A stretch of 64,000 bases of DNA from an uncultured Gemmatimonadales bacterium (GCA_963798085.1 CAWCRS010000007.1:160001-224000), one strand, 5' to 3'; positions 2,954 through 14,614 are shown, counted from the stretch's first letter. Numbers and translations are program-made. The notes: a model not told the origin generated them from the letters alone.

Positions 2954-3177
2954 TTCCTCCGTCTGTGGTCAGCCCGACTCACGCCCGCCGCAGCGAGCGC
3001 ACGCCGGGTAGGAATGCGCTCGGACCTATTCGCAAACTGCCCCAATCGGGTGAATTTCGCAACCCCCCGCGGCCTTCGTTCGCCCGGTCCCGGACCGCTT
3101 GCAGAGGGGGGCGCACAGTGATTAATTCGTCGTCTGACAACTCCCCCGGGCACGCCACCGCTCCCCCAGGAGGCTCC

Positions 3178-5518
3178 GTGTTCCGCAATGCTGCGCTCAG
3201 CGTGTGCCTCGGTCTCGCTCTGACATCCGCTGCACGCGCCCAGACTCCCGATTACAGCCGTGCCGAACGTTTTCTCAGCTGGAACACCAGCACCCTGATT
3301 TCCGGCGACCAGGTCGCGCCGCGCTGGATGTTCGGCGGCAATCGCTTCTGGTATCGCAACAAGACCGGATCCGGCTACGAATTCGTGCTGGTCGATCCGG
3401 TACGCAACACGAAAGGACCGCTCTTCGACCAGCTATCGGCTGGCCGCCGCAATGAGCATGGCGAACGACACGTCGTATCTGCCGGACAAGCTGCCCTTCA
3501 GCTCGTTCGACTTCCAGAAGAACGAGACCGCGATCGCGTTCCGCGTGGGGAAGAAGCGCTTCGAGTGCAGCATCCAGGTCTACACCTGCGCCGTGGGTGA
3601 CACGACGTATGACACGGGGCCCTACGTACTGTCGCCGGATTCCGCGTGGGAAGTTTTCTCGGAGGGCTACAACCTGTACCTGCGGCCGCGCGGCGGCGGC
3701 AAGGATTCGGTCCGTCTCACGACCGATGGCGAAGAATATTTCGCGTACGGCATTGGCATGCCACAGCCGCAGACACTGCTCCGCAACCCGCACCCGCACC
3801 AACGTCCCAGCGTGGTGTGGTCGCCGGACTCGAAGAAGATCGTGGTCACACGCACGGATGAGCGACACGTCCTGCACATGCACTACATCTCGTACACTTC
3901 CACGCGGCCACGCCATTTCGAGAAGCCGTACGCGTTGCCCGGCGACTCCATCGTGGCCGTGCCCAGCCTGCACCTGCTCGACCTCACGCAGACGCTGGCC
4001 GCGCTCAAGGCGGACGGTGCGGCCGTACCGCCGCCGGCGAATATGCGCGTCGAGCTGCAGCCCGCGCCCTTCCGCCTGGGCATGAACACATCCGTCCGTG
4101 GATTCGCTGTGGAGCTCGAATTCCGACAGGATCTACGTCACCACGTACACGCGCGGCGCGAAGAAGCTGCTGCTCACGGAGATCGACGCGCACACCGGCG
4201 CGCAGCGCATTCTCGCGGGTGACAGCTCGAAGACCAACGTGATCGGCCAGGAGTACATCGAGCAGAAGAGCTGGTACGTCTCCCGCGACGGCAAGGACGT
4301 GATCTGGTGGTCGGAGCGCGATGGCTGGGCCCACCTCTGGCTCTATGATGGCAATGGCAGCGTGAAGAACGAGATCACGTCCGGCGCCTGGCCCACCGGC
4401 GAGATCGGCACGTGGACGAAGTGAAACGGCAGATCTGGTTCATCGGCCGCGGGCGCGAGCCAGGGTCGCAACATCTACTACGGCTACCTGTACCGGATCA
4501 ACTTCGACGGCACCGGGCTGACGCTGCTCACGCCCGAGGACGGAGACCACGCCATCACGTTCTCGCCCAGCGGCCAGTTCTTCGTGGACAGTACTCGCGC
4601 ATCGAGACGCCGCCCGTGACCGTGCTGCGCCGCGCGCTCGATGGCAGCGTCGTGCGCGAGCTGGAGAAGGCCGACATTTCCCGCCTCGTCGAGATCGGCT
4701 GGAAGCCGGCGCAGGTGTTCTCGGCCAAGGCCCGCGACGGGCTAACAGACATTTACGGCGTCATGTACCTGCCGCCCAACATGGACTCGACGAAGAAGTA
4801 CCCGGTCATCGAGAACATCTACCCGGGCCCGTTCGTGGGCAGCGTGGGCTCATGGTCGTTCAAGTCGGGCGGCGAGCCGTTCGCACTGGCGCAGCTGGGC
4901 TTCGTCGTGGTGCAGATCGATCACATGGGCACGCGCTACCGGTCCAAGGCCTTCCACGACAATTACTACGGCAACATGGCCGACAACGGCATCCCCGACC
5001 ACATTGTCGCCATCAAGCAGCTGGCCTCGCGCTACCCGTTCATCGACATCGACCGCGTCGGCATCTACGGCCATTCGGGCGGCGGCTTCGCATCGACGGA
5101 TGCGATCCTGCGCTATCCGGACTTCTACAAGGTGGCCGTGTCCGGCTCGGGCAATCACGACAACGCGACCTACGGCGATTACTGGGGTGAGACCTACCAG
5201 GGCCTGATGACGAAGGACCCGAAGACCGGCAAGACGAACTACGAGAGTCAGGCCAACCGCCTGGTCGCCGGCAACCTGCAGGGCCACCTGCTGCTCATGA
5301 CCGGCGATGTGGATGACAACGTGCACCCGGCCATGACGATCCAGGTGATCGATGCGCTGATCAAGGCGAACAAGGATTTCGATTTCATCCTGGCGCCCGA
5401 CCGCGGCCATGGTCTGGATGAGCCGTATTTCATCCGCCGCCGCTGGGACTACTTCGTACGTTATCTCATGGGCGCGGAGCCGCCCCACCAGTACGAGATC
5501 AAGCGACCGGGCGGCTGA
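3178..5518 (+). CDS. S9 family dipeptidyl peptidase IV-like protein (several frameshifts)
   Basis: AGGAGG RBS then GTG 3178 and a signal peptide. DPPIV_N propeller pieces lie across ORFs 2965, 3452, 4098 and 4412. Catalytic motifs GHSGGG, GDVDDNVH and GHG. Frameshifts near 3435, 4095, 4410, 4465 and 4590. Confidence 0.88.
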
Positions 5519-6074: not shown

Positions 6075-7358
6075 TTGAGCAACCGCATCCGCATCTTCCT
6101 GAGCCACAGTTCCGGCAACAACGCGCTGACGGCGGGGGTCGCTGCCATTCTCGGCAGGCAGCGCCAGGCGGACGGCATCACACCCGCGTACGACGTGCTC
6201 GTCGACAAGGAGCGCCTGGAAACAGGCCGGCCATGGCCGAAGCAGCTGCACGCGTGGCTGGCACAGTGTCATGCCGGGCTGGTGCTGCTCACCGAAGAGG
6301 CCGTGAAATCGGCATGGGTGCTCAAGGAGTCGACGATCCTGCAATGGCGGCTGGATCGCGACCCGGCGTTCCGGCTCTTCATCGTGCGTTTCGCGGAAGC
6401 CACGGATGCGCTGCTCGAGCAGTACCGCTTCGCGCCGCTGGAGCTGCGTCGCATCCACAGCATCAAGGTAACGGAAGCGGGCGCCGCAGGCCGGCCGGCG
6501 AGCTGGTCGGACATCGAGACGCGCATCACGAACGAACTGGGCAAACAGCTGGTTGGGGTCCGTACGTATGCGACACCCTTCGATCAGCTCGTCGATGACC
6601 TGGGCAAGTGGCTGGGCAATGCCAGCGACAGCGCGCTCCAGGAAGTGGCGGAGCGCGTACGCGCCGAGCCGCCCGCCTGGGACGCGCAGCGCGACGAGCG
6701 CGAGCAGTATCTGGAAGAGATCGCGCGCCGCATCCTGAGCGAGAACCTGGGTGGTTTTGCGGGCGTGCATGACCTGATCGGTGTGCTGGGCCGCTCTCTC
6801 GACAAGGGGCCGCTGCAGGATGTCCTCGACATTGTGGCGCCGCACTGGGTGGATGGCGTGGCCGCATCCCGCCTGCGTGTGATCAGCAATGCGCCCCGCC
6901 CCATCACGGCGGCGCTGAACGGCGAGGCGGTGCAGCAGTACACGGCCCGCATGTACGTGATGCGCGCGCATTTCATGGGTATCGACTTCGTGCTGCCGGA
7001 GGTGGCCGGGGGCGATGCCGGCGAAGGCCCCGAATACATCTCGAGCCAGATCTGCCGCTGGTTCCGCGACCGCAACATCCTGCTGGGCTCCGACACCGCG
7101 ATACGCAAGGCGCTGCAGACCTGGCCGGCGACCGTGTACGTGGTGCTGCCGGATCCCATCGATAACGCCGCATTACAGCAGCTCAAGTCGTGGTACGAGA
7201 AGGTGACGTTCATTTTTCCGACCGGCGAGACCATGCAGACAGACCCTTCGCTGGAGGATGTCGAGTGTCTGGAGCCGGCGGTGGATGTCACCGTCGAGAC
7301 GGAACAGCAGGGCAGCTTCAATGCAGCCGTCGCATTCATCGCCAACAAGAAACGGTGA
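6075..7358 (+). CDS. TIR-domain protein with a C-terminal inactive STAND/VMAP-like domain
   Basis: N-terminal IFLSHSS...VLVDKERLETGRPW...GLVLLTEEAVKSAWVLKE is a TIR_2 pattern with the WxxxE glutamate. The C-terminal alpha/beta region has P-loop-like strand order but no Walker A. Confidence 0.8.
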   Translation: MSNRIRIFLSHSSGNNALTAGVAAILGRQRQADGITPAYDVLVDKERLETGRPWPKQLHAWLAQCHAGLVLLTEEAVKSAWVLKESTILQWRLDRDPAFRLFIVRFAEATDALLEQYRFAPLELRRIHSIKVTEAGAAGRPASWSDIETRITNELGKQLVGVRTYATPFDQLVDDLGKWLGNASDSALQEVAERVRAEPPAWDAQRDEREQYLEEIARRILSENLGGFAGVHDLIGVLGRSLDKGPLQDVLDIVAPHWVDGVAASRLRVISNAPRPITAALNGEAVQQYTARMYVMRAHFMGIDFVLPEVAGGDAGEGPEYISSQICRWFRDRNILLGSDTAIRKALQTWPATVYVVLPDPIDNAALQQLKSWYEKVTFIFPTGETMQTDPSLEDVECLEPAVDVTVETEQQGSFNAAVAFIANKKR

Positions 7359-7393
7359 ACCGCAGGCCGCGCGCGCGGTCGACAGGAGACAGG

Positions 7394-8396
7394 ATGGAAT
7401 TCGAGCCCGTACACTTCAATCCGTTGCAGCGGCAGGGCGGCAGGCAGCTGGATGACGGGACCGTGGCTTTCCGCGCCAGCGACGAGCCCGGCGACATCTA
7501 CCTGTACGCGCCGCGCGTCATCCTGGCGCTGAATGTGGCCCTCGCCACAGGCCGGCCACTCCTCATCTATGGCGAGCCCGGATCAGGCAAGACGACGCTG
7601 GCCTGGAACGCATCCCGGGTGCTGGGCTGGCGCTACTACAAACGCATGATTACTTCGCGCACGCAGGCGTCCGATCTGCTCTGGACGTTCGATGCGCTCA
7701 GCCGCCTGAATGATGCCACCGCCGGCGAACTGCGGTCGCGGGAACAGTACGTCGAGCCCGGTACGCTCTGGTGGGCCTTTCACCCGGAGACTGCCGAGCA
7801 CCGCGGTACGCGCGCGCCGCTGGCGCCGGCCGACCGGGCGCAGAACCCCTGGCAGGGTGAGGCGTCGGAGCAGGCGGTGGTGCTGATCGACGAGATCGAC
7901 AAGGCCGACCCCAATGTCCCCAACGATCTGCTGGAAGCGTTCGACATCCGCGCCTTCACCGTGAGCGAGACGCGGGACCGGGTGAGCGCGCCCCGCGATC
8001 GCTCCGTGCTGATGATCCTGACCAGCAATAGCGAGCGCGAGCTGCCGCCCGCGTTCCTGCGCCGCTGCGTGGCGCTGACCCTGTCGATTCCGGAGGATAC
8101 GGAAAAGGAGAAACTGCAGGAGAACTGGTTCGTGCAGATCGCCAACCAGCGCCGTGGCGACGCCGATCAGGCGCTGCACCGTGATGTGGCACGCGAGAAT
8201 GGTCCGCCTGCGCACGGCCGCCCGCAGCCTGGGCAGTCGCCCGCCGGGCACGGGCGAGTACCTCGATGCGCTGGCCGCGTGCAGCGGCCTGGGTGTGGGC
8301 ACGGACACGGAAGCCTGGCAGGAGATCCTGACCAGCGTGCTGTGGAAGAAGGAATCGGCACCGGCGCTGCGGCCGGAAACACCGGGCCAGGCGTAG
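7394..8396 (+). CDS. MoxR family AAA+ ATPase (one frameshift near 8190)
   Basis: NVALATGRPLLIYGEPGSGKT, VVLIDEIDKAD, PNDLL, ILTSNSERELPPAFLRRC. The C-terminal lid RPPGTGEYLDAL continues in ORF 8154..8396. Confidence 0.92.
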
Positions 8397-8399
8397 CGC

Positions 8400-9413
8400 G
8401 TGTCGGGCGACGAGGCGCGCACGCAGCGCCGGGCCATCTCGCTGGGCGACGCGATCCGTGCTAATGCGTCGTTAAGGCCGCGCGACAGGGAAGCGCACGC
8501 CGCCATCACGGAGATGCTCGGGCTGGAACAGGAAGCGCTCGAGCCGGTGCAGCCGAGTGAAGGCGTCTGGAAGGCGTCCAGCGCACAGCAGCCGGGCATG
8601 ATCTCACCGGCACCTCTGCCGGCGCAGCCGGCCGCGCCCGTGTCGCGTCCCCTGCCGGCGGACAGCCCGCCCGCCGCGGTGCCCTTCACACTGCGCAAGA
8701 TCGATCGCCCGACATCACCCATGAGTGCCCCCGCATGGCTGAGCGTTCCCGGACCCACGCTGGCGCCGGCCTCGGCGTCGGACGCTTCGCCTGAGCCGCC
8801 GCCGCTCTTCGGGCCGCCCCGCGGGCGCGCCATTCTCTCCACCGCTGTCGCCACGACCGTGGACGAAGGCGAAGTCGACATCCAGCCGATCCTCGACTGG
8901 ATAACACGCGGTCAGCCGGTGCGCGCACTGCCTCGCCGGCCCAGCCTCACGCTGCGCCGCGGCGTACAGCTGCTGCTCAATGTGGGCGCCGGCATGACGC
9001 CGTACCAGCGCGATCGCGAACAGCTGCGGCGAGGGCTCGATGACATCCTGGCCGACGATCAGCTCACGCAATACGAATTCGTCGGCTGTCCGACGCGCGG
9101 CATGGGCAGGGGCGTGCGCGCCGGCTGGAAGCCATGGCAGCCGCCGGCGCCCGGAACACCCGTCGTCGCCGTAACGGATCTCGGACTGGGCGGACCGCCC
9201 CTCGATCGCGACCGCGCGGATGCCGAGGAGTGGCTCGAATTCGCTCGCCTCGTGCACGGCCGCGGCCACATGCTGATGTGCCTCGTGCCCTACGAAGCAC
9301 GGCGCTGGCCGCCCGTGCTGGCGCGCAGCATAACCCTGATCCACTGGAGCGAACGCACGACCGTCGGCTCCGTACGGCGAGCGCTGCGCGAGGCGAGGTC
9401 ACGACTGCGATGA
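8400..9413 (+). CDS. vWA-like protein of a MoxR ternary system, degenerate MIDAS
   Basis: Pro-rich linker, then GEVDI...LPRRP...GVQLLLNVGAGMTPY (MIDAS position) and PVVAVTDLG. Starts 3 nt after the MoxR stop. Confidence 0.75.
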   Translation: MSGDEARTQRRAISLGDAIRANASLRPRDREAHAAITEMLGLEQEALEPVQPSEGVWKASSAQQPGMISPAPLPAQPAAPVSRPLPADSPPAAVPFTLRKIDRPTSPMSAPAWLSVPGPTLAPASASDASPEPPPLFGPPRGRAILSTAVATTVDEGEVDIQPILDWITRGQPVRALPRRPSLTLRRGVQLLLNVGAGMTPYQRDREQLRRGLDDILADDQLTQYEFVGCPTRGMGRGVRAGWKPWQPPAPGTPVVAVTDLGLGGPPLDRDRADAEEWLEFARLVHGRGHMLMCLVPYEARRWPPVLARSITLIHWSERTTVGSVRRALREARSRLR

Positions 9414-12400
9414 CGGCACAGGAGCGCGCCGCCAGCCGGTTCCGTGCGTTCAGCGTGCAGCGGCCGCAGGCTGCGCAGCTGGCGCGCCTGCTCTCGCTCG
9501 CCGTGCGTGCCGAATCGCATTCTCATACGACGACTCCGCCTCGAGCTGCCGCCGCACGCAGACGTCAGCGCCGAAGCTGATCTCTGGTTCAGTCCTCTTG
9601 TCGAGTCGCGCGGACCGGACCTCATCGTGCTGGAGCGCAACGTGGCCGCAATGCTGCGTGAGACGCTGGCCGGCGACGGGCTGCTCGAGCCGGTCATGCG
9701 CATCACGCGCGAAGCGCATCAACACGCGCCCGAGGCGATTCGACTGGAAGAGAAGGTCAACGGACTGGCGCTGTTGAACCGCGCCGCCGCACTGGACGAA
9801 ATCGACGAAGCGCTGCGCGCAGCGATCCGCGCCATGCGCGTGGACAATGAGCGCGGCCGCGAGATCGCCCGCTGGATCACGCGCGCCGGGCCTCGCCTGC
9901 ACCCCATCGTGCAGCAGTGCCCGAGCTGCATGACCCTGCTGCTGGGCGCCTCCGTGCTGCTGGGCCGGCGCACGGTCGAGCCAATGCCGCAGAGCAGCGT
10001 GCCGCTGCGCGATCTGGGCTGGATCCTGCCCGCTGCCGCGCTCGAGGCGCGTACCGAACTCGCGGTTTCCCGCGTGACGGGCGGCCTGCTCTTCTCAGCG
10101 CCCATCAGCGGTGCGATCACGATTGGTCTGCCGCAGACCAATCCGCTGCTCCTCGAGGTTGCGTGGGAATCCGCTGGTTCATCACTGCGCACCCTGCTCG
10201 AGCCCACGCCCGGTCACATGCTGCCGCTCCCCGCCGATGCGCTCGAATGTGCGCATCACGACGCTGGCAGGCGACGAGTACTCGCTGGCACTGACGGCGC
10301 CGATCGCTGCCGCGTCGCAGACGCAGACCCCGGCGCCGGAACCGGCCGCGGAGGCCGGAGAACGCAGGACCGCGTGGGTCGATGCCGGCGAGTACGCGGA
10401 AATCGCCGCCGCGTGCGTCCGCATTCACTCGTACGATGCGGACGGCTCCTGGGCTACGGGTTTCGTGCTGGCGTCGGGCGTGCTGGTCACGTCGCGCCCG
10501 CCGTTCCGCGACGCCCGCGAGCTGCGCGTCGAGTCGCGCGCACCGGAGCAGAAGGCCGACGTGCTCAATGGGACGACCGAAGAACCTGTGCTGGTCCTGA
10601 GGGCCGCCAACGCTAACGACCTGTCAGAAAGCGCGGTCCGCGTTGACAATCCGCCGTTCCGGGTGGCTGGTGGTACGCGACTCGGCGTCTCGGGTGTGTC
10701 GCAACAGGCGGGATCCCTGCGGCCGGAGGACATCGAGGCTGTGATCATGGGTTTCGACGGCGACCAGCTGCGGGCCATGCGCGGCCTGGCCACCATCGAA
10801 ACGCCGGACTCTCGCCGCTTCGAGGTGCGCATCGAATCGGACGAGGCGGTGCCTTCGTCGTTCGTGGGCGGGCCCGTGATCATGGAGGGCCGCGTGTGCG
10901 GCATCGTCCTCAGCGCCCAGGGCGCACCCGTGCCGGAAAGCGGGCAGGCCTCGACCCGCGCGTGGATCATCACGGCGGCCAGCGGCACGGTCATCGACGA
11001 GACGGTACGTGCGGCTGCGTCGTCGCCTGCGGCCGCCGGGGAAGGAGCCGAAACGGCGTCCGGGACCGGCGCGGGTGCCCGGGAGCAGGCGCAGCCACAG
11101 ACGGCAGGCGCCGCACCAGCCGATAATGAGGTGTTACCACCGGAACTCCGGCAGCTGCCCGACTGGGTGGCGGGCGCCTGCGTGGAGCTGCACGGGCTGG
11201 GCGACAACATTACGCCCGTGGCGGGCTTCTTCGTGGACGAGCGCCACGTGGTCACCGCCGCGCAGGCGATCCGCGGGATCCCCATCCTCAATGTGCGACA
11301 GGGTTCGCGGGCGCAGCAGGCGAGGGTGCTGGCGGCGACGGCAGACAGCGCGCTCCGCCTGCTGGAGCTGATCGACGATGCATCAGGACGCGCACAGCCC
11401 TTCGACACACACACCGGCTACGTCAGCGTGGCCCGACTCGCGACCAGCCTCACGGAGCAGCGCGGTAACACCCTGCTCGTCCCCTCCGATGCCACCATCG
11501 TGGCGCGCACCACCGATGGGTTCCAGGTACTGCACGGCAGGGTGCGCACTACGGACTCGCGGCCTTCAGCCTTCGAGGTGCGGGCGGAGGAACACTGGCT
11601 GCCCGCCAGCTGGCTGGGGGCGCTGGTCCTCATCCGGGGCGAGACGGCGGGCGTCGTAACCGGCATTGATAATCCGGTGTTGGGCGACGCCCAGCTGCAG
11701 GTCACCGGATTTCCCGTGATCCGGCAGGCCCTCGAGCGGGTCGATCGGGTGGCCCGGCAGCAGACCGGCGACACTGCGGAGGTGCAACAGCGCGTAGCCG
11801 AGCGGGCATGGTCGAGCGGTGCGCACGGGTATCGCTTTGCGCGCGTGCTGGTGGTGGGTGATGCCGGCAGCGGTCGAGGCACGCTCATGCGTGCCCTCGC
11901 AGCCAGTCGCGAGCCGGTCGCCAGCGACCTGCGGCGCACGATCTGGTGGGAGGAGGAGCCCCGCGTCGCCCCCGAGCTGCACGCGGGTGTCGTGCTCTAC
12001 AAGGCGCTCACTGATGACTGGTGGCCCATCGCGTTCGACCTTGAGCAGAGTGCGCTGATCATGGTGCTGGCCAATGTACACGGTGCGTCCGGACGTGCGC
12101 AGAGCTGGGCCGGTCGACTGCGCGCGGCCGCGCCGGTGCACTGCCCGATCCTTTTCGTGGGCAGTCGTGCGGACACGCTCGACGATGATGCGAAGAGCAT
12201 GTCGATCGAGCTGGAAGGCCTGGCCCGCTCCGACACCGCGACGTGGCCCGAGCCGCCTCGCCTCGAGCCCACTTCCACGATCGTCAGTGCGGAGCGCGCC
12301 ATCAACATTGATCGCCTGCGTACGATGATCCTGCGCAACATCGACTGGGCGCGACAGGTGGAGGTACAGTCGGAGGCGTTTGCACGCGCCCGCAACCAGA

Positions 12401-13122
12401 CCGGCGACATCATCCGGCGTGCGGGCGGCGCGGCCGCCAAGGAGTCGCGGCCCGGCTCCGCCAGCGGGCAGCAGAGCATCCTGCGTGGCAGCCCGCTGCG
12501 ATTCGGCTGGTACGACCAGCTGGCGCCGCTGCTCGGCGAACGCCGCCTGCGCGACGGTACGCTCGTGATCGATGATCCCGCGCGTTTCGAAGACGAAGTC
12601 CTCGCGATCATGCAGGCCGTTCGCGACAACACGCTCGGTGCTCCCGCGGCGCGACTCGCAGAGCTGGAGCGTACCGCGACCTGGGCCGTCGACATTGCCG
12701 GCGAACTGCAACGCATTGGCGAAGGGCGCCTCATCGATACCGATGCAGGTCGCGTCATTGTGGTGCCGCGCTGGCTCAAGGGCGGCACGTTACCGCGTGA
12801 CCTGGCGGAACCGGCGCCGCTGCTGATGTCGCGCCGCCTGCAGGGAGCTACGCGCGATGTGTGTTCGCTGCTGGCAGCCCGGTTCGCATATACGTCGGCA
12901 GTGAAGCTTGTCGGTGTGGGTTGCGACACGGAGGGGCGAGGCCGGCTGAACGCCAGCATCGGCGGCGCCACGCTGCAGCTCGATCTGCGCCAGGACGAGC
13001 GATGGAGCGATCTCGAGGTGCGCGCGGCCCGCGAGAGTCTACCGGAGAAACGGCTCGAAGCGCCGCTGGCACAGCTGGACCGCTGGTTGAACGAACTGCA
13101 CCTGACCATACCGGTCGCCTGA
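9410..13122 (+). CDS. Multidomain effector or sensor: vWA-associated helical domain, two trypsin-like domains, Roc/Ras-like GTPase domain (frameshifts near 9515 and 10245)
   Basis: ATGA overlap with the vWA gene. LARLLSLAVR...RLRLEL...AEADLWFSPLV; trypsin-like ATGFVL/VLVTS...FVGGPVIMEGRVCGIV and VAGFFV/HVVTAAQ...WLGALVLIRGETAGVV; GTPase-like RVLVVGDAGSGRGTL, LFVGSRAD, IVSAE. Confidence 0.7.
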
Positions 13123-14062: not shown

Positions 14063-14335
14063 TCAGGCGACGCAGAGCTGCTCGTCTTCCTGTGGCGTTA
14101 CCTGGATGAACCGCGCCCAGTCCGCATCCAGCACGACTGTCCGGCCACCGGGCGTTTCCAGCAGCACGATCGCCCGCGAATTCTGACGGCAGTGCATGGT
14201 CGATCCTTCTTCGAGACCTATGCCGTAACACAGGTCCTTTAGTGAGCCGAAGAGGATCCGCTCGATGCGGATGGTCTCGTCAGGGTGGACCTCGGCGAGA
14301 CTGCGAAGGGACGATGCTGCCTGCGCGCCGAACAT
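14063..14335 (-). CDS. FeoA-like SH3 domain protein
   Basis: GGAG RBS. SLAEVHPDETIRIERI...LCYGIGLEEGS...VVLDADWARFIQV fits the FeoA pattern. Confidence 0.55.
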   Translation of the reverse strand: MFGAQAASSLRSLAEVHPDETIRIERILFGSLKDLCYGIGLEEGSTMHCRQNSRAIVLLETPGGRTVVLDADWARFIQVTPQEDEQLCVA

Positions 14336-14614
14336 GGCTGCTCCGACGTTGGACATGAACCGGGGAAGTCCGCGGAAGGCGTTGCCAGCGCCCCGCCGGT
14401 CCCGAACAATGACTCCGGCGCCAGTGTCGGACAGTAGGGATTCCTCCCCATCGACCGCCGGGAATTCACCGCCAAACAGGATGTTTTTCACCTACGTTCC
14501 CGGGTTTCCTGCAAAACGCGCTGTTTGGCGGTCGTTTTCGGCGCAAGCGATGCGATGACCTGCCCGGTCCCCGGCCCGCAGGCGCAGGTTCGCCGGATGC
14601 GGCCGGCGGCTGCT

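Follow-up and report, generated by a model that had tools for sequence, protein, structure and literature searches.

A 64,000-nucleotide stretch of DNA from an uncultured Gemmatimonadales bacterium (GCA_963798085.1, CAWCRS010000007.1:160001-224000), hereafter the window, carries on its plus strand an operon of four genes, which encode a TIR domain protein, a MoxR-type AAA+ ATPase, a stand-alone vWA protein, and a large protein in which the linker domain vWA-L is followed by a tail of two trypsin-like domains and a GTPase fold (Table 1). Genes 1 and 2 are separated by 35 nt and genes 2 and 3 by 3 nt, and genes 3 and 4 share an ATGA overlap. The operon is confirmed: the original prediction, made from the sequence alone, had given these coordinates and junctions, which proved exact on recheck, and its domain calls (TIR, MoxR, vWA, pseudo-trypsin/GTPase) hold as well. 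It had also placed the genes among the MoxR-vWA ternary conflict systems, which is borne out through homology to the TERNS3 type; judged by sequence, the locus is almost certainly a TERNS3 member.

TERNS3 systems are the subject of a paper reportedly by Kaur, Iyer, Burroughs, and the Aravind lab. They combine a novel alpha+beta third component, mostly fused to TIR, with MoxR, vWA, and a separate protein made of vWA-L and variable domains (PMC8195603, eLife 2021). Neither the libraries searched nor that paper's alignment archive yielded a TERNS3 model, and membership was tested via a listed member. A profile of the non-TIR part of gene 1 matches 1,508 clusters (50% identity; E up to 0.001), and one of the ten matches that were looked up (P0145) is WP_169849771.1 from Corallococcus exiguus, listed as TIR+TERNS3-N+TERNS3 followed by MoxR in Figure 2-source data 1 of PMC8195603. 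The profile aligns with this protein at an E value of 6.7e-39 (positions 6-260), a direct comparison with gene 1 gives a full-length alignment at 29% (aa 1-419, E 2e-35), and in a tree of 28 rows the listed protein nests within the gene 1 family, on a long branch. The assignment is made because of this full-length homology, the nesting in the tree, and the presence of the same three structural parts. The locus thus displays the TERNS3-N+TERNS3 module, the N-terminal TIR fusion, the TERNS3 gene order, and variable domains carried on vWA-L; it and its relatives further resemble the published type in the length of the TIR+TERNS3-N+TERNS3 protein (~400-450 aa), in having separate vWA and vWA-L+tail genes, and in an occasional SLATT neighbor.

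The architecture is already described computationally, and the locus is another copy of it. The earlier view that a TIR effector and a split vWA component make an unrecognized combination has to be given up, both being part of the described layout (PMC8195603). An identical, previously characterized architecture, named at the outset as a possible refutation, does exist on the computational side (PMC8195603) but not on the experimental one: no bench test was found for any of the MoxR-vWA ternary conflict systems in the literature searched (subscription journals were outside its scope), where the name TERNS3 occurs in one relevant paper; this agrees with the earlier statement that the combination is not recognized from any tested system. 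Of the 79 published TERNS3 rows, not one has a Gemmatimonadota host or a named GTPase tail; a trypsin occurs in a single row (trypsin+STAND+TPR), several rows contain unnamed "??" domains, and many have SLATT neighbors. New here are the Gemmatimonadota hosts, the size of the family (about 1,500 clusters against the 79 rows, that is, far larger than published), and the trypsin-trypsin-GTPase tail. The claimed novelty of this tail stands with respect to the TERNS3 rows but not with respect to the VMAP type, in whose variable slot inactive trypsins and AP-GTPases have been described (PMC7159879). TERNS3 systems tend to occur mainly in multicellular bacteria (PMC8195603); two Gemmatimonas species and two Acidobacteria rows in the 2020 table are scored as not multicellular (PMC7159879).

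Table 1. Genes and domains of the operon, in window coordinates unless amino acid (aa) positions are given
Feature	Position	Strand	Basis and remarks
Gene 1, third component, 427 aa	6075..7358	+	Pfam TIR_2, model, full-length match to WP_169849771.1
Gene 1, TIR domain	~aa 1-163		Glu85 in WVLKE
Gene 1, TERNS3-N	~aa 168-271		six helices
Gene 1, TERNS3 domain	~aa 275-427		alpha/beta
Gene 2, MoxR AAA+ ATPase	7394..8396	+	motifs, Pfam, relatives; a +1 frame change in the assembly near 8200
Gene 3, stand-alone vWA protein, 337 aa	8400..9413	+	
Gene 4, whole	9410..13122	+	
Gene 4, vWA-L linker domain (N-terminus), ~280 aa	9410..10270	+	conserved in all gene 4 homologues; two +1 frame changes in the assembly, near 9520 and 10245
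Gene 4, trypsin-like domain 1	10366..11004	+	lacks catalytic His and Ser
Gene 4, trypsin-like domain 2	11155..11766	+	lacks catalytic His and Ser
Gene 4, Ras-like (AP-GTPase/Roc-like) GTPase fold	11821..12360	+	low-confidence model; eroded P-loop
Gene 4, C-terminal region	12361..13122	+	also present in L001 and L002; pLDDT <50 over much of the region

The TIR domain of gene 1 is recognized by the Pfam model TIR_2 (E 1.6e-8), and its fold is confirmed by structure comparison. TIR_2 is present in all 63 members of the gene 1 family, and Glu85 is invariant in the same 63 sequences. With its TIR fold and a catalytic Glu at the conserved helix, the features that mark an enzymatic TIR, the domain is predicted to be an NADase. 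The structure predicted for gene 1 (pLDDT 90.8) falls into three parts: TIR, six helices, and an alpha/beta domain of alternating strands and helices, for which Foldseek ranks RPP1, a TIR-NB-ARC protein of plants, and many AAA+ ATPases highest. The TERNS3 domain may be a STAND-like NTPase fold that has eroded further, in which case TERNS3 and the iSTAND types would belong together. The hhalign comparison of TERNS3 with iSTAND, whose profile is shallow (six sequences), is not significant (2.6%, E 0.018), and the Atlas iSTAND leads for gene 1 are weak (0.75-0.78).

The VMAP and iSTAND types of ternary systems are defined in PMC7159879. The operon resembles the VMAP type in the order of third component, MoxR, and vWA, and the third component of VMAP systems can also begin with TIR (PMC7159879). 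It differs from that type in that gene 1 has no VMAP-C match, the variable part is a separate gene, and the N-terminal motifs of the VMAP-type MoxR (WxhapG and PsWRxa) were found by pattern search in none of 38 MoxR relatives. VMAP-C (PF20028) gave no match on gene 1, nor does it appear among the best 25 of the 30 families matched across the 63 members; the model does match true VMAPs and so works, and hhalign put the probability of the relationship at 1.4% or below. By these models gene 1 does not fit the VMAP type. The iSTAND and iSTAND2 types share with the operon a TIR-like domain fused to the third component, as well as a split of vWA and vWA-L in iSTAND2 and some iSTAND systems (PMC7159879, PMC8195603). 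However, PF19995 finds the two true iSTAND loci of this genome, one of them split, and has no match on gene 1.

SPARTA, TIR-SAVED, and Thoeris are tested defenses that rely on a TIR NADase. The operon differs from these in having no Argonaute, SAVED, or ThsA partner, and the Thoeris and SAVED models match only the TIR part of gene 1, and that weakly.

Gene 2 matches AAA_5 (E 7e-16), and its Walker A (GEPGSGKTT), Walker B (LIDEIDKAD), and arginine finger (AFLRRC) are all intact; over the first 270 aa it is 53-63% identical to six intact relatives. By strict patterns, these three motifs are present in 34, 37, and 28, respectively, of the 38 MoxR relatives. Genes 3 and 4 have no significant match in Pfam, NCBIfam, or PADLOC, and none of these three resources captures the TERNS3 family as a system.

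An alignment of gene 1 homologues led to 25 genome loci and 52 metagenome loci, three pairs of which are duplicates or near-duplicates. Where enough downstream DNA is available, MoxR follows in 50 of 53 loci, vWA in 34 of 36, and the gene 4 N-terminus in 33 of 35; the loci that break this order (L012, L024, and L075) match gene 1 only partly. The vWA protein and gene 4 are separate genes, mostly with an overlap of a few bases, in 32 of 33 loci, the exception being an assembly ridden with frameshifts. Pairwise identities of the four components correlate (Spearman 0.78-0.82) over 26 loci, with duplicates and broken and short loci dropped, although part of this covariation comes from shared ancestry. 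The system is patchily spread: it is present in 1 of 60 related genomes, and a search of 400 other genomes of the phylum gave no strong match and two weak partial ones (E about 5e-4). The related loci come from uncultured genomes, including Acidobacteriota, Gemmatimonadota, and others, hosts not known as multicellular. Kinship data point to Gemmatimonadota for the host of the present operon.

Conflict-type genes are modestly represented next to these loci. SLATT, caspase, TIR, or STAND genes clearly adjoin 6 of the 17 related loci, and patatin adjoins a seventh; none was seen among the flank genes scanned beside the present copy. A survey of homologue neighborhoods, proposed with the original prediction, accordingly gives the conserved order with a variable fourth gene that had been anticipated, and the co-occurrence of the four genes, but of the expected enrichment in defense genes only this modest part. 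As to individual neighborhoods, genes with two SLATT membrane modules lie at L009:9057-9983, L011:15590-16591, and L016:8937-9833, and downstream of L008 lie genes for a caspase, a TIR protein, and an nSTAND1-WD40 protein.

The constant part of gene 4 is vWA-L; its profile finds, in addition, the vWA-L gene that stands by itself in an iSTAND locus of the same genome (E 3e-10). The tail changes between loci. Eighteen of the 26 tails scanned have a Pfam match, to TIR, DUF4062, CBS-CorC, PLD, PKD-HTH, metallo-beta-lactamase, TPR, GH13, pentapeptide, or EAD2-VMAP, and eight have none. Two of 28 relatives (L001 and L002) also have the trypsin-plus-GTPase tail; the present copy is 26-34% identical to them in the tail, compared with 57-61% in MoxR and 49-53% in vWA. 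None of ten aligned trypsin-like copies has the catalytic His and Ser in place. The P-loop of the GTPase fold reads GDAGSGRG here, with neither the Lys nor the Ser/Thr, and is lost in L001 and L002 as well (eroded in 3/3); the model of this fold was built from the three sequences. The C-terminal region is, by motif, putatively COR-like. TIR and MoxR are then the sole intact-looking enzymes of this copy. Other tails also carry altered enzymes: in L041 (6176-8992) a CBM48+GH13 branching-enzyme-like module carries Tyr where the third catalytic Asp would stand, and the HKD motif is incomplete in both PLD tails. The tail of Kutzneria sp. L016 (13189-15525) consists of EAD2+VMAP-M0+VMAP-C and shares 84% identity across 483 aa with the VMAP protein of its own genome (L087), which identifies it, at the sequence level, as a recent capture in which one ternary system took the third component of another. 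A distinct subclade (L019, L021, L023, and L072) has a short gene 4 that closes with the opening portion of a metallo-beta-lactamase-like fold, in which the metal motif is incomplete, and in L019 and L023 a further gene directly follows it.

A role of the operon in defense is probable. We favor, at about even confidence, its action as an anti-invader trap in which the dead domains of gene 4 serve as bait, MoxR as relay, and the TIR domain as the NAD+-cleaving enzyme that stalls or kills the infected cell. The enzymes that are both fixed and intact are TIR and MoxR; what varies is frequently an inactive copy of a cellular protein, here read as bait. Also in favor are the full-length TERNS3 homology, the invariant Glu85, the covarying core, the turnover of tails, the recent capture in L016, and the patchy distribution. 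vWA-L would dock the tail onto vWA and so re-create what is a single fused protein in other ternary systems, and at rest the complex would keep the TIR-TERNS3 proteins apart. An invader protein aimed at host proteases or GTPases would bind the bait; the MoxR ring would then use ATP to remodel its vWA-bound partner, as known MoxR-vWA pairs do (PMC7159879), and the TIR domains might cluster and hydrolyze NAD+. The order from sensor to MoxR to TIR has also been proposed for ternary systems in PMC10907252, and taken overall, we put the direction from tail through MoxR to TIR at about even odds.

Several observations weigh against this reading. In the vWA protein, the first metal-site Asp, present in 27 of 27 relatives, is replaced by Asn194 (window 8979-8981), which is either a real change or a sequencing error. 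The flanks of this copy are housekeeping genes, and PADLOC, which holds no model for a TERNS3 system, matches the operon with generic TIR and AAA models only. SLATT genes adjoin 3 of the 17 related loci and fit a TIR-made signal rather than direct NAD+ depletion. All four gene 4 TIR tails that aligned over the site keep the catalytic Glu, and some of these tails look, by sequence, like real effectors. Experiments on phage protection, NADase activity, or binding were found neither in the literature searched nor in the accessible passages of a 2026 ParA preprint.

Part of this evidence favors the opposite direction, stated by the Aravind group in PMC8195603 and PMC7159879, in which TERNS3 senses the invader, TIR makes an ADP-ribose-derived threshold signal, and MoxR-vWA deploys the gene 4 tail as a dominant-negative or sequestering effector. 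The SLATT neighbors and the tails with a catalytically complete TIR agree with it, but it would make the sensor the conserved part and the effector the variable one, and the present copy has no intact tail enzyme and no adjacent signal receptor; we regard it as possible, if rather unlikely. PMC7159879 and PMC8195603 on one side and PMC10907252 on the other disagree on which role, sensor or effector, the variable tail has, and this lineage, lacking such an enzyme and receptor, is a clean test case for the direction of signaling, with close relatives that combine the same core with different tails and are suited to the comparison.

Less probable still is a machine outside defense, in which MoxR-vWA uses the homologous dead domains to assemble or regulate complexes of the host, be they protease, GTPase, or metabolic ones, and TIR is a scaffold or metabolic sensor. 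Characterized MoxR-vWA pairs are assembly chaperones (PMC7159879), and housekeeping genes flank most of the related loci as well as this one; against it stand the turnover of tails among unrelated domain families, the capture of a protein of another conflict system, the patchy distribution, and the invariant TIR glutamate.

That the family is functional and this copy decaying, through three real frameshifts and the lost vWA metal ligand, is very unlikely: three breaks do fall within 7 kb and Asn194 departs from all 27 relatives, but the essential genes rpoB and rpoC (contig C5) are also broken by frame changes in this assembly, in which secA, alaS, and gyrA are whole, the coding frames of the operon contain no in-frame stops, and the TIR and MoxR motifs are intact. 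Assembly error most likely accounts for the three +1 frame changes that break genes 2 and 4, given the intact relatives and the damage to rpoB and rpoC. Six intact relatives read unbroken through the points near 8200 and 9520, and L001, L036, and L040 are contiguous across the third. Short parts of the operon have close matches in public contigs from a single soil sample, and among the matches listed none spans a break.

Returning to the trap, a broader and more tentative proposal is that TERNS3 systems are bacterial integrated-decoy receptors, widespread in soil bacteria that are not known as multicellular. In such receptors vWA-L would be a swappable cassette on which copies of host proteins decay into bait, with any phage attack on them signaled through MoxR to the fixed TIR NADase, and TERNS3 itself would perhaps be an eroded STAND-like fold. 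The captured proteins would include proteases, GTPases, glycogen enzymes, and the VMAP of another conflict system.

The same genome encodes two further MoxR-vWA ternary systems. The second (L083, G000:C1:202521-208927, minus strand) consists of DUF4062(TIR-like)+iSTAND, MoxR, and a 1,362-aa protein that has no Pfam match and looks like a vWA-type fusion with a long hydrophobic tail. The third (L084, G000:C5:247841-253614, plus strand) consists of DUF4062+iSTAND, MoxR, VWA_CoxE, and a separate vWA-L+protein kinase+TIR gene; the split layout therefore occurs twice in this genome.

The operon has the GC content of its surroundings and lies, as originally stated, among housekeeping genes, its neighbors encoding an S9 peptidase, a small membrane protein, a phosphoribosyltransferase, and an amidase. 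The S9 peptidase gene (window 3121-5518, plus strand) seems split into several frames, and with the breaks in rpoB and rpoC it indicates that indels are frequent in the assembly. A small open reading frame with a weak FeoA match (window 14063-14491, minus strand; E 0.028) adjoins the phosphoribosyltransferase gene.

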